Shown: positions 2,424 through 32,660 of the stretch, piece by piece
Layout: every line of letters begins with the position of its first letter
Numbering within the stretch: the first letter of the stretch is position 1
Origin: a virus
Lineage: Duplodnaviria; Heunggongvirae; Uroviricota; Caudoviricetes
Length of the DNA stretch: 32,660 nucleotides
Direction: 5' to 3' (one strand)
IMG/VR virus record: IMGVR_UViG_2648501400_000018
The notes under the pieces: generated by a model
Seen by the model: only the letters and a program-made list of their open reading frames with translations
Database searches by the model: none
What the model was told of the DNA's origin: nothing
Position numbers and translations under genes: made by a program

Positions 2424-3548
2424 TCACACTCCTTTAATCACATCCGCATTCACCACCGGCACGCCGATATCAGCGGCCAGATTCATTGCGGCGATAACCA
2501 GATTCCCCAGCGCCAGCGGATAAAGCAGACTGACGTCACCGCGTCGGGATGAATTACATAATCGGGCGCGGATAGCATCGGCGGTGCTATCATCCAGCAC
2601 CTCGGAAACACCTTTCCCGGTACGCTGAAATTTGAACGCCAGAAACGCTTCCAGATAGTTATCCAGCGGCAGCAGTTCGACGACCTCGCAGCGCTGTACC
2701 ACTTCGCGCACCTCCTGATTACGTTCAGAAAGTTTCAGCTTTAGCTCCGGCTGGCCAATCAACACCACCGACAGCAGTTTTTTAAAGCCGTCCTCCAGCT
2801 CAAAGAACCGCTTCAAATGCTTGAGCGTCGGCACCGGTAGCGAGTGCGCCTCTTCAATAACCAGACAATGTGAGAACCCGGCGCGGGCCGACTCTTTCAG
2901 CACCCGGTGCAACTGGCGGTAACGGGCCTCCTGCGAGCGTTTGACGTTCTCCAGCGGTGCGATGGTGTTGATGATGGCCTCGGCAATCGACGCCGCTTTC
3001 AGAGTTTTGCCTTTGGCGTCGTTGTCTTCCATCGCAATGATGTACGGTTCGATGAGGATAACTGGCGCGTTTTCACGGTTGATGCGATCAGCCAGGTCAC
3101 GGCGTAGCGTGGTTTTCCCTGCGCCGGATTCGCCAACTACGGCGATAAATCCGCCATGTCGCGCGGTCTGATACAGTGCTTCACGCACGTAGCGGATATC
3201 TGGCGTGGTGAACACGTCGTCCGCACTCTGCATAACCTCATCGGCGAACGGGTCGCGGAACAACCCAAAATGCTTCTTCGCCGCTGGATTTAATACCTGT
3301 TTTGCCAGTAACATATTTTCGTCCTCACTGGATGATGTACCGGTGCAGGCGGTGGCCGCCGTCTGCGCCTCCTTCAGTTCAATACCTTTTTCTGCAAAAA
3401 ATGTGCTGATGCGCTCCCGTAGTTCTTCTGTTTTCGGCCACAGGCCGTGATTAACCATCTGCGCGATAACCGCTGCGGAAACTCCGGTAGCCTGTGCTAC
3501 TGCTGCCTGAGTGATGCCACGCTGGCGCAACTGTTGTTTAATCTGCAT
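2424..3548 (-). CDS. MuB-like transposition ATPase (AAA+ with N-terminal HTH)
   Basis: 374 aa ORF; N-terminal HTH (ITQAAVAQATGVSAAVIAQMVN); Walker A GESGAGKT; sits immediately downstream of the transposase as B follows A in Mu. Confidence 0.7.
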   Translation of the reverse strand: MQIKQQLRQRGITQAAVAQATGVSAAVIAQMVNHGLWPKTEELRERISTFFAEKGIELKEAQTAATACTGTSSSEDENMLLAKQVLNPAAKKHFGLFRDPFADEVMQSADDVFTTPDIRYVREALYQTARHGGFIAVVGESGAGKTTLRRDLADRINRENAPVILIEPYIIAMEDNDAKGKTLKAASIAEAIINTIAPLENVKRSQEARYRQLHRVLKESARAGFSHCLVIEEAHSLPVPTLKHLKRFFELEDGFKKLLSVVLIGQPELKLKLSERNQEVREVVQRCEVVELLPLDNYLEAFLAFKFQRTGKGVSEVLDDSTADAIRARLCNSSRRGDVSLLYPLALGNLVIAAMNLAADIGVPVVNADVIKGV

Positions 3549-3557
3549 AACTCCCCC

Positions 3558-5312
3558 TTAACCGCCGACTACGTTCAGTTGCACTCGGGCGGTAAGCTGC
3601 TGCGCGGCGGCGTCCAGTTCTTCTTCCGCCACGCCTTCTGGCCAGCGTTTCACCAGTTCCTGATACAGTGCGACGTTCCATTCCGGCAACCGTGCTTTCA
3701 GCGCCTTCGCCGCCTCGACGTGAGTCAGACGCCGGGCTTCAACGCGTGGAGCGCGTACCGGGGAATCCTGACCACGACGCGGCAGGAACGCGGGCAGTTC
3801 GCTGTCGGTGATGGGTTTATACGGGTCAAGCCTGCCGCCGAACGGCAGCGCCTTCGCTTTACGCGCCGCAGCCGCGTCCGTCTCGTTATCTGTTCCGGTA
3901 ACAATCTGCTCAATCTGTTTAGCCGCAGTCTGCGCGGGTGTATCGGCGTGGCGCTTGTGATTCTGGCCCAGCACCGCCGCGCCTTCGGCAAAGCCGTATT
4001 CGTCCTTGCGGACTTCCTCCACCAGGTGAAAATACTCGTGGCCATCGTCACCGATGAGCACTACCTGCGCGGCATCGCTGCGCCACGGATTGCGGGTGAT
4101 CATCAGTTTTTCACCCACCATCACATCTGGCACGGTGGAGACGTCGTATTCCGTACCCTGAAACGACACGCGCAGCTTCGGCGTTATCTTGCGGCTTTCC
4201 GGCGCGGCAACAGCCAGTTCGCGGCAGACCTCCACCGATGGCGCTTTGATAAGCTGCTGCGCGGTGATGGTCATCCAGACGTTACTACGCGACTTGCCGT
4301 GGCGGGTGTGAATCGCGGTGGCGTTGAAGTGCTGCCGCCACAGGCGCGCTTTGGCGTTCAGTTCCTCCAGGCTGTGAACCGGCTGGAACTTCAGCCCCGG
4401 TTCAAAGCGGCGTTCGATAATGTCGCGCGCCTTTTCCACCTGCCCGGTGGCGCGGGCGTTGTGGGCTTTATGCGCCACCACGTCAATGCCCAGCGAACGA
4501 CAGAGGTTCTTCGTCATAGCGGCGGTGTTGGCCGAGCCGGGGTCGAGATACAACATATGCGGCACGCCGTGGAGCACATCCGCGCCGCCGCGCTCCTGCA
4601 TGGCATTGATGAGAACGGAACAGAGATTTTCGCCAGACTCCGCCCCCATCACGTATTCAACGTAGATCCAGCCGCTGGTATGGTCGGTCAGTTCATAGCT
4701 CCATACCCGGTCACTGGCGATACGTTGCAGGTTCTTCGGCTTGTTTTTGTAGAACGTCGCGCTGTCCATCACCTGTAACCCGCGCTGTCCGTTGCTGAGG
4801 TAGTACAGCGTGCAGAGCGAGGCGTCGATTTCCCAGACGTGATTGGGGTGCAGACTGGCAAGCTCCGTCACTGGCGCGGGCTGGCTGAGTTGATCCGGGT
4901 GCAGGCCGTAGCCACGCAGCGCCCGGATGATGGTGCTTTCTGACAATGGCACCCACTCGCCGCTTTCCTCATCCAGCCGCCCGGCGTCAATCTCGCCGTT
5001 GGCGCGTAACATCTCCACGGCATCAATGACGGAATACAGGCGCTTGCCGTTCTTACGGGTGGCTTCCGTCAGCGTAGCGGAAATCATCACCGCCTCATCG
5101 CGGGTCAGCGCGGTTTTTCCGGCGTCGGTGCGGCGCTTGCGTTTATCGGTCACGGCAACCTCCTTTATTCTGCGTAACAGCGTGGCGCGGGACAGGCCAA
5201 GTTCCGCGCAGGCGGCAGTGTAGATTGCGCCGCGTGCGCCATGCCCGGCCTGCCGTGCAGCCTGAGCAACAGCAACTAAGCGTTCGGTCATGACGGCGCT
5301 CATGGTCAGCAT
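3558..5312 (-). CDS. DDE transposase, MuA-like
   Basis: 584 aa ORF; N-terminal DNA-binding region; candidate DDE residues in HVWEIDAS, YLDPGSANTA and a downstream Glu (GQVEKA); followed by the B-like ATPase. Confidence 0.75.
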   Translation of the reverse strand: MLTMSAVMTERLVAVAQAARQAGHGARGAIYTAACAELGLSRATLLRRIKEVAVTDKRKRRTDAGKTALTRDEAVMISATLTEATRKNGKRLYSVIDAVEMLRANGEIDAGRLDEESGEWVPLSESTIIRALRGYGLHPDQLSQPAPVTELASLHPNHVWEIDASLCTLYYLSNGQRGLQVMDSATFYKNKPKNLQRIASDRVWSYELTDHTSGWIYVEYVMGAESGENLCSVLINAMQERGGADVLHGVPHMLYLDPGSANTAAMTKNLCRSLGIDVVAHKAHNARATGQVEKARDIIERRFEPGLKFQPVHSLEELNAKARLWRQHFNATAIHTRHGKSRSNVWMTITAQQLIKAPSVEVCRELAVAAPESRKITPKLRVSFQGTEYDVSTVPDVMVGEKLMITRNPWRSDAAQVVLIGDDGHEYFHLVEEVRKDEYGFAEGAAVLGQNHKRHADTPAQTAAKQIEQIVTGTDNETDAAAARKAKALPFGGRLDPYKPITDSELPAFLPRRGQDSPVRAPRVEARRLTHVEAAKALKARLPEWNVALYQELVKRWPEGVAEEELDAAAQQLTARVQLNVVGG

Positions 5313-6848: not shown

Positions 6849-7084
6849 GCATGCATCTCCAGTGGTTGGACATGGCGGCTGATGTAGTGGTCAGAACAGG
6901 TGATGTTGCCTGGATCGTCCGGGCCGTTCAGCCCGGCAAACTCATCAACCAGAAATACGCTATATGCGGATAATCCTCGCTGACGCGGAATGCGGCGAAT
7001 AAACGTGCAGTGGTGTGGAGTTGATTGGCCAAATGAGGGCGTAATCAGTACGCGCTGGCCGGGGGTTAAATCGGTAGGTTTCAT
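6845..7084 (-). CDS. Hypothetical protein
   Basis: 79 aa ORF packed between the ner-like gene and the HTH gene; no motif recognised. Confidence 0.3.
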   Translation of the reverse strand: MKPTDLTPGQRVLITPSFGQSTPHHCTFIRRIPRQRGLSAYSVFLVDEFAGLNGPDDPGNITCSDHYISRHVQPLEMHA

Positions 7085-7094
7085 TGCGCTCTCC

Positions 7095-7319
7095 TTAGTT
7101 AGGTTCGTGCAGGATGCCTGGCACGATCTCTTTTCCGATGGTGCGGGACAGTTCTTTCAGGATGCGGAATGTAAGACGTCCGCGCGGCAAGTCCTGTTTG
7201 CCCGCCCAACGATCAACAGCTTGCGTAACCGTCCGGGGTTCGTAGCCGGTACTGATGGCGAACTGGCGAAAGTTGCTGCCCTGCTCAATCAGCCGCGCGT
7301 GGATTTGGTGTTTGTTCAT
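7095..7319 (-). CDS. ner: Ner-like DNA-binding regulator (Ner/Nlp family)
   Basis: 74 aa ORF; size and pattern (FAISTGYEPRTVTQAVDRWAGK) resemble Mu Ner; first gene of the leftward early operon and divergent from the repressor-like gene. Confidence 0.55.
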   Translation of the reverse strand: MNKHQIHARLIEQGSNFRQFAISTGYEPRTVTQAVDRWAGKQDLPRGRLTFRILKELSRTIGKEIVPGILHEPN

Positions 7320-7400
7320 TTGTTCCCTCTGAGCTATTATGTACTCAATTGGGTTTATTGTACGTACTCAAACGGGCAAGTCAACGACTAATATGCACAA
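7320..7400. promoter_or_regulatory. Divergent promoter/operator region between ner-like and repressor-like genes with two direct repeats
   Basis: Imperfect direct repeats TATTATGTACTCAA (about 7335-7348) and TATTGTACGTACTCAA (about 7356-7371) sharing GTACTCAA, in the 81 bp gap between divergent regulators. Confidence 0.4.
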
Positions 7401-7811
7401 ATGAACATAAAAGAAAGGCTCAAAAAAATACTCGCTGACAAAGCGTTATCAATCACTGATGCTGCCGCGCAGTGCGATATCCCATATCGTTCTCTACAAA
7501 ACTATCTGCGTGGCGAGCGAGAACCAAATGCGGAGGCATTGATCTCAATAGGTACCCATTTGGGTATAAATATTGATTGGCTGCTCACCGGCAGAGGAGG
7601 AATGCATCTGTCTGAACATGCGGATGTTTTGACTGAGCAGCCGGAATACAGCCATGCCGATTTGAAGTTACTGGAATTTTTGAATCAGTTGGAACCGGAT
7701 ATACGAAAGGATTTATTACGCAGTGCTGAAGAAAAACAGCGAGTGGCCGCCCTAGAAAAAAGATTAGAGGAATTGGCTTTAGAACTCGAAAGCCTAAAAC
7801 GTTCGGCGTAA
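7401..7811 (+). CDS. XRE-family HTH regulator, putative prophage repressor
   Basis: 136 aa ORF; N-terminal HTH (ITDAAAQCDIPYRSLQNYLRGEREPNAEALISIGTHLGINIDWLLTG); C-terminal coiled-coil-like region; divergent from ner-like gene. Confidence 0.55.
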   Translation: MNIKERLKKILADKALSITDAAAQCDIPYRSLQNYLRGEREPNAEALISIGTHLGINIDWLLTGRGGMHLSEHADVLTEQPEYSHADLKLLEFLNQLEPDIRKDLLRSAEEKQRVAALEKRLEELALELESLKRSA

Positions 7812-7849
7812 AGTGTTCTCATTAAGAACAAAACATGAAGGACTATGTT

Positions 7850-8371
7850 ATGAAACACTTTTTCTTACCTTTGGGGGGTTGTGCGCTGTTGTTGTCGGGA
7901 TGTGGTGATGACGATGTTACGCAGCCATCTGCATCGACAACGTTTACTGTTGAAACCGATAGTCCGGTAGTGAAGCGCGAATTGCCCTTTATTCGCCAAC
8001 AGTGTCCAGGACTGGATAAATACGCGGCAAACTTTGATAAATTTAAGGTCTACGACGACACGATGCGTCCGGTGACAACGGTGGAGTTTCACGTCAAGAA
8101 TGAGAACAGCATACCAGGTAATTACACCGCCTCTGATCATACCTGTTTCCTTTTCATCTCCAACAATGCCCACGAAGTGAAGATTTCAAAATCGGCCTGC
8201 CAGTCAGTTTGCTTTGATAAAGCGGATGTGCCGGGTGGGGATTTGGTTGTGAAACTGGATAAAGAAAGAGTTCCTATGACTGCTGATAAGAAACCACCAC
8301 GCGAGGGGTGCCTGATGGTTTACTCGCCAGAGCCGGATGGGGATTACTGGACGTGTCCAAGACAAGATTAA
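7850..8371 (+). CDS. Lipoprotein (signal peptide with lipobox LSGC)
   Basis: Start moved to the second ATG (MKHFFLPLGGCALLLSGCG), which has AAGGA about 7 nt upstream; six further cysteines in the mature part; AT-rich relative to late genes. Confidence 0.6.
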   Translation: MKHFFLPLGGCALLLSGCGDDDVTQPSASTTFTVETDSPVVKRELPFIRQQCPGLDKYAANFDKFKVYDDTMRPVTTVEFHVKNENSIPGNYTASDHTCFLFISNNAHEVKISKSACQSVCFDKADVPGGDLVVKLDKERVPMTADKKPPREGCLMVYSPEPDGDYWTCPRQD

Positions 8372-8448
8372 ACATGTTGTAAACAAAACAAAAAAGCGTG
8401 CAGACAGCACGCATTTACTATCTAACTCTACTGAAGGTTTCAGATTCT

Positions 8449-9480
8449 ATGCCAGCAAATGAACCTGCAAATGCAATCGTTGTAAATCATGTGGTTATTC
8501 ACCTTTTAGATAAAGAGCCGCATGGGGTGACATCCTTACAGCTTAGCCCGGCAGAGAGTGGCGTCACCGCAGCATCACAACGCTTAATAGATGATATCTG
8601 TGGGAAATATGCAGGGCGAATGGGGAAAGGTTATGGCCATTTTGAAGATGACCCTGACAATTACCCGATGCAAACAATCGTATCAGACTATTTAGCTCAA
8701 GAGCATCCTGATGATTTTTACCGTAGCTCCTGTCGCATGATTCGTCATCTGGAATCTCGGATTCAAACAACACCACTCGCTACTGGTGGCTATGTTCTAT
8801 TCGCCCACATTACGATGAATCAACACGAGCATATTCTAGTTGCCATGTTAAGCCCCACGACGGGAACTGCGGTTAACGATGCCTTTGCTATCCAGGAAAG
8901 TGTCTACCTTGATATCGACAAGCTACGTGTGGCGGGGCGTATTGACATTACGTCCTGGCAATCAGGTGCCGAACGTTATATAAGTTTCCTGAAAGGGAGC
9001 AATGCTGTATCTGGTTACTTTAAGCAGTTCCTGGGCTGTAACGATGTTTTGATCGCCAAGCGTGAAACAGAGAAATTGCGGGATGCGTTGAAAGAGTTTG
9101 CGACTGAGCAAGGGCTTGACCCCGCACGTCGAGAGGCTTTTCTGCAAACGGCCCATGACCATTTGAAGCAACTGAGCAAAGATGGTGAGCCTGTAGATCT
9201 GACAACCTTTGTGAACGCAGTCTGGCCACAAGAACCAGAGCTGCTATCGACTAAGCTGGCCAACCAAGAACTGGAACTGTCGGATGGTTTTGTCCCAGAT
9301 GGACGCGTACTAAAAGGAATCATTTCCTTTAAAGGAAAGTCCAATCATTGGGAGCTAAAGTTTGATCGTGCTGGTCTTCAAGATGGTTCAATTGAGTATA
9401 ATCGTAATCAGGATGTAATCATTCTAAGGAATATTCCTGATAGCTTCAGAGAAGAGATACTGGATGAGGTTGAGGAGTGA
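8449..9480 (+). CDS. NdpA/YejK-like nucleoid-associated protein family homolog
   Basis: N-terminal VNHVVIHLL, central GRIDITSWQSGAERYISFLKG...FLG and C-terminal WELKFD...LRNIPDSFREEI match remembered motifs of E. coli YejK; start placed at internal ATG MPANEP by alignment. Confidence 0.6.
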   Translation: MPANEPANAIVVNHVVIHLLDKEPHGVTSLQLSPAESGVTAASQRLIDDICGKYAGRMGKGYGHFEDDPDNYPMQTIVSDYLAQEHPDDFYRSSCRMIRHLESRIQTTPLATGGYVLFAHITMNQHEHILVAMLSPTTGTAVNDAFAIQESVYLDIDKLRVAGRIDITSWQSGAERYISFLKGSNAVSGYFKQFLGCNDVLIAKRETEKLRDALKEFATEQGLDPARREAFLQTAHDHLKQLSKDGEPVDLTTFVNAVWPQEPELLSTKLANQELELSDGFVPDGRVLKGIISFKGKSNHWELKFDRAGLQDGSIEYNRNQDVIILRNIPDSFREEILDEVEE

Positions 9481-10685
9481 GTATCAGTTTTGAGCAACTG
9501 GTGGGATTGTACAGGCAGATTACTTTCGGTAACGATATGGCCGAAGGTACGCTGGTGCTTACCCCAGAATCCTGCGAGTTGCTCAACGCTTTGCTTGAGG
9601 ACACCGATACATATGGGATCTCTCTGGCACAAGGTGAAGTAGTGGCTGGCCAGCAGGTGTCGCTTTTTGTGAACGCACCAAAGACAAAGCTAGGTCTGCT
9701 ATGCCGTAATTTGGCGGCTTTGTTAAAGTCGCCAAAACACCAAAGCGAGGAACCTTCCCGCTACTACCTGATCGACAGCCAATTTTATAGTTCGGATGCG
9801 CCAACATCCGTAATTGAAAACTACCGCACTATCTTAACATTTCTGCGCCTGCTTAAAGAAAAGTCGGCATACTTTGATACCAGTGCATATGAATGCGTTT
9901 TTTTCCGTGCCGATGTATTTAAATTACCTATACGTTACAGTGCAGAAACCGTAGAAAATCTTGATAAAACGACACTCGATGAACTCATTCAGCAGTTTTC
10001 TGACGACACACACAAAGAGCAGAAACTCTCGCTTTTAATTGAAAGCATCCAGTTAATCGGCCAGGAAACGGAAAACAATAAAGTCTTTGAGTATGCACTG
10101 AAGAACATTGATAAATTAAAAGTTGAGTTCGATAAGGGTTATCGCCTCTTCACTTCTGGGTTCTCATACGAAAAGGTTCTGGATGAACTTAGAACCGCCA
10201 AAGTTGAAGAAATGGGACGTATCCATAAAGTCTTTTCAGATATCCAAAACCAGATACTGGGTATCCCAGTCGCAACCATTATCGTCGCGACACAAATCAA
10301 GAAAGCAAGTGGTGATGTCTATCAAACCATTATCAATAGAGCAGTTTTTTTAGGGGCCTTTGTTTTTGCTACGTTGGTTATGTTGACTTTGTTCAACCAG
10401 TTACAGACGTTAACTGCTATCAAAGAAGAACTTCGACATAAAAAGACTCAGGTTGATAAAAAATATGCATCAATAAAAAATGACATTGATAGTATCTTTT
10501 GCTCTGTACGTAAACGTCTTTGCCGTCAGGTTATTGCGTTCTGGTTTATTATTATGTTCCTTGTTGTCGCTATTATATCGACAGGATTAATTTACCTATA
10601 CTGCACATACCCTGAAACATGGAATATCTTGGTTACAAAAGTGATGTCATGGCGGCATCACTTGAGCAATAAGCCCACTCCTTAA
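9477..10685 (+). CDS. Membrane protein with two C-terminal transmembrane helices, translationally coupled to the NdpA-like gene
   Basis: GTG start overlaps the upstream stop (GTGA); about 270 aa soluble N-domain then AVFLGAFVFATLVMLTLF and VIAFWFIIMFLVVAIISTGLIYLY. Confidence 0.5.
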   Translation: MSISFEQLVGLYRQITFGNDMAEGTLVLTPESCELLNALLEDTDTYGISLAQGEVVAGQQVSLFVNAPKTKLGLLCRNLAALLKSPKHQSEEPSRYYLIDSQFYSSDAPTSVIENYRTILTFLRLLKEKSAYFDTSAYECVFFRADVFKLPIRYSAETVENLDKTTLDELIQQFSDDTHKEQKLSLLIESIQLIGQETENNKVFEYALKNIDKLKVEFDKGYRLFTSGFSYEKVLDELRTAKVEEMGRIHKVFSDIQNQILGIPVATIIVATQIKKASGDVYQTIINRAVFLGAFVFATLVMLTLFNQLQTLTAIKEELRHKKTQVDKKYASIKNDIDSIFCSVRKRLCRQVIAFWFIIMFLVVAIISTGLIYLYCTYPETWNILVTKVMSWRHHLSNKPTP

Positions 10686-10750
10686 ACCCCTTTAAAAGCC
10701 TTCCTGCCAGCCATCCCCCACACTGCCTTCATCACCCAATGGAGGCACTT

Positions 10751-11038
10751 ATGAAAAATCTTTTCCCGCGTTTATCCGGCTGGCTGTTTGCCGCAGTTGT
10801 TTTGTTTGTACAAATAGTCGCGATCTCTCCGCAACAGGTTCCGGTGGTGGGTTACAAATTAAGCCTGATCTCACTGGCGGCGGTGCTGGGCTACTGGCTT
10901 GATCGCAGCCTGTTTCCCTATGCGCGACCTAATCATTTTTATCTGACGGAAGGTGAGCAACTATTGTTTGCTGCGTCCATGCTGCGCCGAGCCGTGATTG
11001 TCGCTGCTGTGTGCCTGGCCGTAGCGATGGGGATGTGA
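10751..11038 (+). CDS. Putative holin (three hydrophobic segments)
   Basis: Start placed at ATG preceded by GGAGG; hydrophobic stretches WLFAAVVLFVQIVAI, LSLISLAAVLGYWL, AVIVAAVCLAVAMGM; immediately upstream of the endolysin. Confidence 0.4.
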   Translation: MKNLFPRLSGWLFAAVVLFVQIVAISPQQVPVVGYKLSLISLAAVLGYWLDRSLFPYARPNHFYLTEGEQLLFAASMLRRAVIVAAVCLAVAMGM

Positions 11039-11040
11039 CT

Positions 11041-11757
11041 ATGGGCTGGCCACAAATTACCTGGATTGTGTTGGTCTCGCTGTCGTTAGGGATAGAGATG
11101 ATGATGCACAGCAGGACGCGTAAGCACAATTTCTGGGGACACTTAGCCAGTGTATTAGTAGTCGCTGGTTTGCTCTGGTGCGGCGGCTTTTTCAGCCAGG
11201 CGCACGCCGCCGAACCGCCCACCGCCGCGAAACCTTACCGCGCCGAATTGGTGCGTAATGCCCGCGCGGTATGGGGGATGGATGCGCCTGTCGCCGATTT
11301 CGCCGGGCAGTTCCAGCAGGAATCCGGCTGGAATCCCGCCGCCCGTTCACCCGTTGGTGCGCAGGGGATGGCGCAGTTTATGCCCTCCACTGCCGACTGG
11401 ATCAGCAAACAATTCCCGGAACTACGTTCCCGCGAGCCGTTCAATCCGTCGTGGGCCATCCGCGCGCTGATGCAGTACGACCAGTGGCTGTGGCAGCGCG
11501 TGAGTGGGCGCGATAACTGCCAGCGGATGGCGTTCACCTTAAGCGCCTATAACGGCGGCTTAGGCTGGGTGAACCGCGATAAAAAACTGGCGACGCAGCG
11601 CGGATTAAATGCTGCCGTCTGGTTCGATGCGGTGGCGACGGTCAACGCCGGGCGCAGCGCCGCCAACTGGCGCGAAAACCGGGGTTATCCGCAACGCATC
11701 CTGTACCAGAACGCGCCGCGCTATCTGTCATGGGGAGGGGCTAACTGTGTTCGATAA
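11041..11757 (+). CDS. Lytic transglycosylase-type endolysin (SLT domain) with N-terminal signal or SAR-like segment
   Basis: SLT-like motifs QESGWNPAA and GAQGMAQFMPSTADW; N-terminal hydrophobic stretch LASVLVVAGLLWCGGFFSQAHA; ATG 3 nt after the holin stop. Confidence 0.7.
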   Translation: MGWPQITWIVLVSLSLGIEMMMHSRTRKHNFWGHLASVLVVAGLLWCGGFFSQAHAAEPPTAAKPYRAELVRNARAVWGMDAPVADFAGQFQQESGWNPAARSPVGAQGMAQFMPSTADWISKQFPELRSREPFNPSWAIRALMQYDQWLWQRVSGRDNCQRMAFTLSAYNGGLGWVNRDKKLATQRGLNAAVWFDAVATVNAGRSAANWRENRGYPQRILYQNAPRYLSWGGANCVR

Positions 11758-31886: not shown

Positions 31887-32660
31887 ATGAAAACATTACC
31901 CATTATTCCGTGGCCCGGCGGTAAGCGTCGTCTGGCCAAAAAGTTATTACCGTTATTTCCTGAGCACCAGTGTTATGTAGAGCCATTCTGCGGCGGTGCA
32001 GCCTTGTATTTCATGAAGGAGCCGGTTGAAGCTGAAGTCCTGAACGATATCAACGGCGAACTGGTGAATCTGTACCGTGTGGTTAAAAATCATCTTGAAG
32101 AGTTTGTGCGCCAGTTCAAGTGGGCGTTGAGCAGCAGGCAGATTTTTGAATGGTCGAAAATGACCATCCCGGAGACGCTAACTGATATTCAGCGTGCAGC
32201 GCGGTTTTATTATCTCCAGAAGCAATCATTCGGAGGGAAAGTGGAATCACAGACGTATGGAACGGCGACCACTTCTGCACCACGGCTTAATCTGCTAAGG
32301 CTGGAAGAGGAGTTGAGCGCCGCCCATTTGCGGCTATCACGCACGTTTGTAGAACATTTACCGTGGCGTACCTGCATTGAGAAGTATGATCGCCCGCACA
32401 CACTGTTCTATTGCGATCCCCCGTATTGGGGAACGGAGGGCTACGGTGTTGAATTTGGACTGGAGCAGTACACCCAACTTGCAGAGTTGGCCAGAACGAT
32501 AAAAGGCAGGATGTTGATCAGTGTGAACGATATCCCGGAGATGCGTGAAACCTTTGCGGACTTGTCGATTGATACGGTAGATATTCGCTATACGTTGAGC
32601 GGTGGGCCTAATGCTAATCGCTCGAAAGTCAGCCGTGAGCTGGTCATTCGTAACTGGTAA
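31887..32660 (+). CDS. Dam-family (D12-class) N6-adenine DNA methyltransferase
   Basis: N-terminal SAM-binding pattern PGGKRRL...CYVEPFCGGAALYF; catalytic DPPY in LFYCDPPYWG; C-terminal RMLISVND; arrangement parallels E. coli Dam. Confidence 0.75.
   Translation: MKTLPIIPWPGGKRRLAKKLLPLFPEHQCYVEPFCGGAALYFMKEPVEAEVLNDINGELVNLYRVVKNHLEEFVRQFKWALSSRQIFEWSKMTIPETLTDIQRAARFYYLQKQSFGGKVESQTYGTATTSAPRLNLLRLEEELSAAHLRLSRTFVEHLPWRTCIEKYDRPHTLFYCDPPYWGTEGYGVEFGLEQYTQLAELARTIKGRMLISVNDIPEMRETFADLSIDTVDIRYTLSGGPNANRSKVSRELVIRNW

Follow-up and report, generated by a model that had tools for sequence, protein, structure and literature searches.

A YejK-like protein and its membrane-protein partner in a Mu-like prophage as a probable anti-phage module related to DS-1 and type II PANGU

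We analyzed a 32,660-nucleotide stretch of DNA from a tailed virus of the class Caudoviricetes (IMG/VR virus record IMGVR_UViG_2648501400_000018; hereafter, the window), which gene content and Pfam matches identify as a Mu-like (Bcepmuvirus-like) prophage, and focused on two adjacent open reading frames (ORFs) of its plus strand. ORF A (8449-9480, 343 amino acids), a PF04245 protein, is the proposed chromosome-bound sensor, and ORF B (9477-10685, 402 amino acids), a predicted membrane protein matching phrog_5023 (E-value 1.9e-86), is the proposed effector. We consider it probable, at roughly 0.72, that this prophage encodes, with ORF A and ORF B, an anti-phage module of the DS-1 and type II PANGU kind. 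As judged by sequence comparison, ORF A is a member of the YejK family and both proteins are remotely homologous to the validated DS-1 pair, of which they appear to represent a divergent sister subfamily, most likely working in the same way. The pair is obligate and co-diverging, and is low-GC (guanine-cytosine) cargo carried on mobile elements. An earlier note on this DNA had presented the pair as a candidate for an undescribed defense system; that claim has to be withdrawn, given that YejK-based defense was published in 2025-2026 and is represented by models in NCBIfam, so that the kind of system is not new.

The relationship of ORF A to the YejK/NdpA nucleoid-associated proteins, previously read from N-terminal, central and C-terminal motifs, extends over the whole protein. 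The match to PF04245 (NA37; E-value 3.8e-74, 250.4 bits against a cut-off of 24.6) covers profile positions 1-324 of 325, and ORF A is also significantly similar to phrog_3767, annotated as 'nucleoid associated protein' (E-value 3e-101), and to the solved structure of Escherichia coli YejK (PDB 9be2, E-value 4.8e-30), which has been described as a dimeric clamp with a basic 30 Å pore that binds DNA without sequence preference. With 189.5 bits against the NCBIfam YejK equivalog NF001557, under the cut-off of 341, ORF A is predicted not to be an orthologue of the housekeeping YejK. ORF A had no match in PADLOC-DB 2023, a library older than the relevant papers.

For ORF B, a Pfam scan returned no match and PADLOC-DB 2023 a chance-level match alone. 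The two-part architecture that had been proposed for this protein, a large soluble domain followed by two C-terminal transmembrane helices, was borne out, with a possible third membrane segment. Structure prediction, which the earlier note had recommended, yielded an AlphaFold2 model of the full-length protein with a predicted local distance difference test (pLDDT) score of 81.6, in which a confident N-terminal domain is followed by four long helices, at residues 211-272, 280-329, 331-377 and 379-397; modeled alone, residues 1-210 reached a pLDDT of 94.9 and a predicted template modeling score of 0.89. This N-terminal alpha/beta domain (9477-10106, plus strand) is acidic and is the proposed docking site for ORF A. 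Its net charge is -11, compared to a family median of -9 (range -17 to -2) and to -9 for the N-domain of the DS-1 membrane protein (DS-1B), and the isoelectric point of residues 1-257 is 4.9, although charge alone does not decide whether the domain mimics DNA. A search with the modeled N-domain found no analogue among solved or viral structures. A DTHKEQKL motif in ORF B contains H179, which is invariant and common to the ORF B family and DS-1B.

The membrane part is the best conserved portion of ORF B, with invariant polar residues Q257, N258, T272, Q273, N287, N307, Q308 and Q351. The most conserved segment of all is a hydrophobic helix at residues 256-274 (NQILGIPVATIIVATQ; QNQILGIPVATIIVATQ), encoded at 10242-10298 on the plus strand, in which Q257, N258, L261, P264, A266, T272 and Q273 are invariant and which aligns with 'NQTKALTIPGALIAAG' of DS-1B. 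Its mean hydropathy of 1.74 is moderate, and the helix is a candidate for the possible third membrane segment, lying first in order or being re-entrant. The two transmembrane helices proper, defined by Kyte-Doolittle windows of 19 residues above 1.6, lie at residues 284-306 (10326-10394, plus strand; family median 1.95), inside model helix 280-329, and at residues 352-374 (10530-10598, plus strand; hydropathy up to 2.63), inside model helix 331-377. Assigning the topology by the positive-inside rule was tried and rejected, the +5 charge of the loop at residues 310-349 not being conserved (family median +1).

The functional assignment draws on DS-1, system D390 of the DefensePredictor study (DeWeirdt, Mahoney, Laub; bioRxiv January 2025, Science 2026), an E. 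coli operon in which a 391-amino-acid protein with a zinc ribbon and an NA37 domain (WP_000355468.1; DS-1A) is followed by a 404-amino-acid protein with two transmembrane helices (WP_000150292.1; DS-1B). When cloned in MG1655, DS-1 was scored as defensive, and the result was replicated; in the primary screen, the -log efficiency of plating was 7.6 for Bas1, 2.7 for Bas26, 1.7 for Bas3 and T3 and ~1 for T5 and T7, with none for SECphi27. The June 2026 release of NCBIfam contains the corresponding equivalogs DS1_1_antiphage ('nucleoid-associated anti-phage protein') and DS1_2_antiphage (NF053868 and NF053869, respectively). The published DS-1A and DS-1B sequences, included as a positive control, score 451 and 375 bits, both above the respective NCBIfam cut-offs of 330 and 315, and the models can thus be taken to represent DS-1. 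ORF A matches the first model with an E-value of 2.3e-18 (66.4 bits) and ORF B the second with an E-value of 1e-20 (74.2 bits). Direct BLASTP comparison recovered both relationships as well, with 23% identity between ORF A and DS-1A (E-value 5e-11) and 25% identity between ORF B and DS-1B over the C-terminal 214 residues (E-value 8e-9), and alignment of a profile of 67 ORF B homologues with DS-1B by hhalign (probability 95.8%, E-value 6.9e-9) took in 264 columns and residues 73-354 of ORF B. In addition, WP_077474557.1, a YejK-like protein with 39% identity, had independently been predicted to be defensive by DefensePredictor.

The stop codon of ORF A (TGA, 9478-9480) overlaps the GTG start codon of ORF B (9477-9479) in a GTGA sequence at 9477-9480 on the plus strand, as had been noticed at the outset, and this overlap implies that the two genes are probably translationally coupled; tight spacing or overlap of the two genes is also found in other loci. 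The GTG start of ORF B is supported by residues F5, L8 and Y12, which are nearly invariant across the 67 homologues. For ORF A, the feature had been drawn from the first GTG of the open frame, at 8398, with the gene itself beginning at ATG 8449, and the latter position is the likely start: ATG 8449 is preferred because a GAAGG ribosome-binding site lies 10 nucleotides upstream, because gene calls in Salmonella and E. coli relatives give the same 343-amino-acid product, and because GTG 8398 would fall within a hairpin described below.

Pairing of the two genes is strict. In a first search, we found 259 close relatives of ORF B, the nearest of which, from Salmonella, is 92% identical, and an exhaustive profile search yielded 1,233 ORF B clusters at 50% identity; the best 150 of these 1,233 clusters have the same layout of ~400 amino acids or are shorter partial matches. 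A separate profile search with the ORF B N-domains alone, for fusions to other effectors, gave at least three matches. Scanning one genome per species identified 62 ORF B loci in alpha-, beta- and gammaproteobacteria, and a YejK-like gene lies directly upstream on the same strand in all 56 informative ones (56/56); two of the six remaining loci are cut by contig ends and four (L065, L066, L070 and L072) contain ORF B fragments only. Furthermore, the two proteins co-diverge, with pairwise identities among 57 distinct pairs correlated between ORF A and ORF B (r 0.88, Mantel p ~0.001). One complete pair, with 37% and 39% identity, was found in a metagenome-assembled genome labeled Candidatus Yonathbacteria, of the candidate phyla radiation (L071), all other matches being from Proteobacteria; this case could reflect mis-binning or genuine long-range transfer.

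Co-occurrence of the pair in other genomes and on other mobile elements, which the earlier note had recommended checking, was confirmed, and in the seven contexts that we inspected gene by gene, a PF04245 gene is located immediately upstream of the ORF B homologue on the same strand in 7/7. In Salmonella and Klebsiella Mu-like prophages, the pair occupies the same slot as in the window, and in Xenorhabdus it has Mu-like tail genes as neighbors. A Citrobacter lambdoid prophage carries it between the Q antiterminator and the holin gene, in opposite orientation to the late operon. The remaining contexts are a Tn7-like element in an Oxalobacteraceae bacterium, where the pair adjoins a SIR2-DUF4020 protein gene, a Pseudomonas island, where it adjoins a restriction-type nuclease (RE_endonuc), and the genome end of Sinorhizobium phage phi2LM21, where a methyltransferase gene is its neighbor. 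Among 150 nearest-neighbor ORFs from 41 loci, recorded by presence, we found defense genes (type III restriction enzyme REase_III, ZorA/ZorB, Shedu SduA, Dsr1, HEC-05, HEC-08, DUF4238, Cas and methyltransferases) and mobile-element genes (integrases, TniQ, AcaB, TraN, TrbI, Q antiterminators and holins, conjugation genes being among them).

Several of these loci have features of their own. In Xenorhabdus budapestensis (L002, 4211-6017), the YejK-like gene is split into pieces of 247 and 97 amino acids next to an intact ORF B homologue, and this copy is therefore probably decaying. The Citrobacter prophage (L004/L005, 10039-11265) carries genes for a colicin-domain protein (PF01024), an HNH protein and an SLFN/AlbA_2 protein within a few kilobases of the pair, which suggests that this region is rich in cargo. 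In the Klebsiella relative, a Dam-type methylase gene (L003, 3924-4694) shares the slot with the pair.

In the window, the pair lies in a block that differs from the rest of the prophage. The plus-strand genes between the two prophage arms are, in order, the repressor gene (7401-7811; Pfam HTH_3, E-value 4.4e-8; Phage_CI_repr, E-value 4.4e-4; PHROG repressor families), a lipoprotein-like ORF, ORF A and ORF B. The holin gene (10739-11038, plus strand; PF13272 Holin_2-3, E-value 3.2e-30), with which the lysis and late block begins, starts 54 nucleotides past the end of ORF B. GC content is 0.42-0.46 over ~7000-10700 versus ~0.58-0.60 on either flank, and the block is therefore likely to be acquired cargo. 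The interval between the repressor and holin genes is a variable cargo slot among related Bcepmuviruses: it contains gp47-gp50 in phiE255, and a Dam methylase gene and unassigned genes in PhiKM. Only 2 of 5,426 complete E. coli genomes harbor the pair-bearing block, which matches window positions 7838-11036 at 93% identity and lies behind a different repressor; its genes are annotated there as hypothetical protein, nucleoid-associated protein, hypothetical protein and putative holin. A megablast search of positions 7300-11100 against phage genomes gave no match.

A mechanism for such modules can be outlined from the PANGU preprint of April 2026 (Li et al., bioRxiv 10.64898/2026.04.06.716658), in which operons with YejK-like proteins were assayed. 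Type I PANGU (Pag1A and Pag1B) combines a YejK-like protein with a toxSAS enzyme carrying an acidic 'DNA-mimicking' domain, and in type II PANGU (Pag2A and Pag2B) the partner of the YejK-like protein is an effector built of two parts, an acidic domain at the N terminus and a transmembrane domain at the C terminus. According to the same preprint, both genes are required, neither construct is toxic and the modules do not behave as toxin-antitoxin systems; protection reaches 3-4 logs against T4 or Bas34, with abortive-infection behavior at high multiplicity, and T4 escapes through EndoII mutations. The YejK-like protein binds long DNA only, and in both PANGU types its fusion to green fluorescent protein departs from the nucleoid upon T4 infection. 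A K200/R203/K204 mutant of Pag1A loses DNA binding, a DNA-binding mutant of the type I sensor renders the system toxic, and Pag2A binds the N-domain of Pag2B with a dissociation constant of 19 nM (Li et al.).

The combination of a DNA-binding sensor with a membrane effector of exclusion or abortive infection, as conceived in the earlier note, is supported, by analogy, by the DS-1 homology, the type II PANGU architecture, the obligate pairing and the mobile and defense context. From these published systems, we infer the defense phenotype, the trigger, the contact between ORF A and ORF B and the membrane effect. In the lysogen, ORF A would bind the host chromosome as a YejK-type dimeric DNA clamp, and ORF B would be an inactive protein of the inner membrane whose acidic N-terminal domain faces the cytoplasm. 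An incoming lytic phage that degrades the chromosome would deprive ORF A of its DNA, and DNA-free ORF A could then bind the acidic N-domain of ORF B, switching the long-helix membrane module to a membrane-damaging form. The infected cell would thus arrest or die before phage release, that is, undergo abortive infection.

A more elaborate version of this proposal, which we regard as doubtful, portrays the pair as a putative DS-1/Pag2 sister family that combines a receptor domain, of a fold lacking a solved analogue, with a three-helix membrane module whose invariant polar residues line a gated pore. In Mu-like prophages, where it is placed behind the repressor, such a module would be expressed in the lysogen, like RexAB, to guard the intact chromosome on which the replication of a transposable phage depends. 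In this prophage, the pair might also fire in the phage's own late phase, beside the holin, when packaging fragments the chromosome.

Several points weigh against assigning the pair to this kind of defense. Protection by DS-1 was assayed with the cloned genes, whereas the present subfamily is known from sequence alone, and because the scores fall far short of the equivalog cut-offs, its function is deduced from proteins that share 23-25% identity with it. DS-1A starts with MDITCLECG...CDKCG, an N-terminal CxxC...CxxC zinc ribbon, whereas ORF A contains neither a zinc-ribbon extension nor cysteine pairs. The likeness to type II PANGU is judged on the described architecture, not on sequence, and the preprint itself assigns no activation mode or action to the type II effector (Li et al.). 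Moreover, the YejK patch R173/R176/K177, which is needed for DNA binding and to which the Pag1A residues K200/R203/K204 are assumed to correspond, is represented in ORF A by S184, a gap and A186, and DNA binding by ORF A is, as far as its sequence tells, not assured. A second set of YejK residues required for DNA binding, R276/R280/K284, aligns with G285 (with R286 adjacent), K289 and S293. The R173 column is occupied by K or R in 78% of the members of the paired family, with S or Q in the enterobacterial subclade, and ORF A retains many other conserved basic residues in common with YejK. Expression signals add two further reservations: a promoter scan found 7 sites compared to 6.4 in shuffled sequence and no convincing promoter for the pair, and no terminator-like site is present between ORF B and the holin gene (10686-10750).

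The latter finding bears on the first alternative, that the pair serves the phage's own cycle, with ORF A organizing or protecting DNA during Mu-type replicative transposition and ORF B tuning the timing of lysis, for instance, through activation once the chromosome is broken up by headful packaging. Mu-type phages rely on host DNA-architectural proteins, and in Bcepmuvirus-like prophages the pair is located directly upstream of the holin gene, with no terminator-like site in between; its position between the Q antiterminator and the holin gene in the Citrobacter lambdoid prophage points in the same direction. However, the Citrobacter pair is oriented against the late operon, the pairs in the Tn7-like element and the Pseudomonas island have no lysis or phage genes nearby, and others lie beside Zorya, Shedu and Dsr1 genes. 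Related Bcepmuviruses lack the pair, as do all but the two complete E. coli genomes mentioned above, and the low GC content marks it as acquired cargo. We therefore judge a role in the phage's own cycle to be quite improbable.

Superinfection exclusion, the alternative already raised in the earlier note, would block DNA entry or early steps of infection at the membrane without killing the cell, with ORF B acting at the injection site and ORF A on the incoming DNA. The combination of a membrane protein and a DNA-binding protein in one module would fit such a role, as would the position downstream of the repressor and beside a lipoprotein-like gene. However, the homologous kind of system displays abortive infection at high multiplicity, and its sensor relocalizes only after host DNA degradation. 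Furthermore, YejK-type clamps bind without sequence preference and so could not tell incoming from host DNA; exclusion, too, thus appears to be a very unlikely explanation.

Very unlikely as well is a third alternative, in which the module has no immune function and instead helps to maintain mobile elements or is accessory to them. It could be a foreign nucleoid protein that lessens the burden imposed by the element, a role suggested for NdpA-like proteins encoded on plasmids, or else a toxin/regulator pair of the addiction type. YejK/NdpA-like genes without assigned function are known on plasmids and temperate phages, and the module is borne by many kinds of mobile elements, but this explanation leaves the obligate pairing with a membrane protein (56/56) unaccounted for, both partners are homologous to a pair that protects E. 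coli from phage when cloned alone, and the PANGU constructs are non-toxic and unlike toxin-antitoxin systems.

The remainder of the window conforms to the Mu-like layout. The early genes, left of 7319 on the minus strand, include those for a MuB-like AAA protein (2424-3548), a DDE (rve) transposase (3558-5312), a Ner-like helix-turn-helix protein (7319-7095), a MarR/IclR-like regulator, a DUF3164 protein and a DUF3102 protein, the last of which shares 58% identity with its counterpart in Escherichia phage PhiKM (Bcepmuvirus), 57% with the one in Burkholderia phage phiE255 and 40% with BcepMu gp10. The late genes run rightwards on the plus strand from 10739 and encode the holin, an SLT endolysin, Mu Gp27, a Mu-type portal, a tape-measure protein and tail fibers. 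After the tail-fiber genes, at the right edge of the window, a D12-class N6-adenine DNA methyltransferase is encoded (31887-32660, plus strand; PF02086, E-value 1.5e-28). The best promoter-like site of the region lies at 7357-7384 on the minus strand (TTGACT-16-TACAAT, 10/12). It points left, towards the Ner-like gene and away from the repressor gene, which starts at 7401, an arrangement that resembles a prophage early promoter/operator region.

The pair starts 638 nucleotides downstream of the repressor gene, and of the description of the pair as co-oriented with and directly downstream of this gene, the first part is correct and the second is not, because a lipoprotein-like ORF and a hairpin intervene. 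The lipoprotein-like ORF (7835-8371, plus strand, 178 amino acids) has the lipobox LLSGC in a signal sequence (MKHFFLPLGGCALLLSGC), a match to phrog_10002 (E-value 2e-12) and no match in Pfam. Its homologues are restricted to the two closest prophages and are missing from all other contexts of the pair that we examined. The lipoprotein-like ORF was considered and rejected as a third component of the module on this ground; accompanying the pair only in the closest relatives, it is better viewed as a separate moron, and may be a separate exclusion gene or moron.

The hairpin, GCGTGC-AGACA-GCACGC at 8396-8412, is GC-rich and lies between the lipoprotein-like gene and ORF A. It forms a 6-base-pair stem in the minimum-free-energy fold, the 77-nucleotide intergenic region folding with -15 kcal/mol (z -1.8). 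The hairpin is terminator-like on both strands, but only weakly so on the plus strand, given that a T-run is present solely on the minus strand; the A-run that precedes it makes it a canonical terminator when read on the minus strand. Its role could be to keep antisense transcripts from running into the repressor gene. No obvious minus-strand gene was found to the right of the hairpin.

If the proposal is true, temperate transposable phages supply their hosts with a chromosome-integrity sensor, and a large and widely mobile branch is added to a class of defense described only in 2025-2026. For further work, the family offers a deep alignment, a confident model of the N-domain and a set of invariant residues, namely H179, the FSY-K motif and the QNQ...IP...TQ helix. 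In practical terms, YejK-like genes of prophages that are labeled 'nucleoid-associated protein' are likely defense genes when this partner comes next.

Lambda RexA-RexB is a two-gene prophage module located downstream of the repressor on the repressor's strand, of which the cytoplasmic part is proposed to activate the membrane part, leading to abortive infection. The pair described here resembles it in being a two-gene module downstream of a repressor, on the same strand, in a prophage. Comparison with rexA-rexB, drawn in the earlier note from the position of the genes, holds in the Bcepmuvirus-like prophage lineage only, the pair being found elsewhere in a lambdoid prophage, in a Tn7-like element, next to restriction, Zorya, Shedu or Dsr1 genes and at the genome end of a Sinorhizobium phage. 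Unlike RexAB, the pair is separated from the repressor by a gene and a hairpin, its repressor linkage is not conserved in other contexts, and the trigger logic would differ. In the Pfam and PADLOC scans, NA37 was the sole family found for ORF A, and no Rex family was found for ORF B.

E. coli YejK (9be2) and ORF A belong to the same fold family over their full length. Unlike YejK, ORF A is borne by mobile elements, is obligately paired with a membrane protein and does not conserve the R173/R176/K177 patch. Type I PANGU shares the proposed logic, in which a clamp freed from degraded DNA binds the acidic domain of the effector, but in place of a membrane protein it has a nucleotide pyrophosphokinase as effector, and in Pfam ORF B has no match to such domains.

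Type II PANGU is closer. The pair has the tight bicistronic operon, the acidic N-domain and the C-terminal transmembrane domain of this type. Type II operons were delimited by a gap of <40 base pairs to a non-YejK partner, and ORF A and ORF B overlap by 4 base pairs; as in type II effectors, the membrane domain is evident in ORF B, from two strong transmembrane cores and a conserved hydrophobic helix. Type II PANGU is described as linked to defense islands, interphylum in distribution and modular (Li et al., 10.64898/2026.04.06.716658), and the pair, too, is linked to known defense genes. The preprint makes no mention of carriage by prophages, whereas the pair in the window occupies the immunity-to-lysis slot of a Mu-like prophage.

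The closest comparison is with DS-1. The alignment with DS-1B leaves out the first ~70 residues of ORF B, and ORF A is nearer to housekeeping YejK than DS-1A is (189 versus 81 bits). These YejK scores, together with the sub-threshold matches to the DS-1 models and the lack of a zinc ribbon, indicate that the pair is probably a sister subfamily and not DS-1 itself. Both have the same layout, with a PF04245/YejK-domain gene first and a gene for a protein of ~400 amino acids with an acidic N-terminal domain and C-terminal transmembrane helices second, and both share three motifs in the membrane protein, namely, D-x-H-K-x-x-x-K-L in the N-domain, FS-x-x-K-[IV]L-x-EL and an IP-containing hydrophobic membrane helix.

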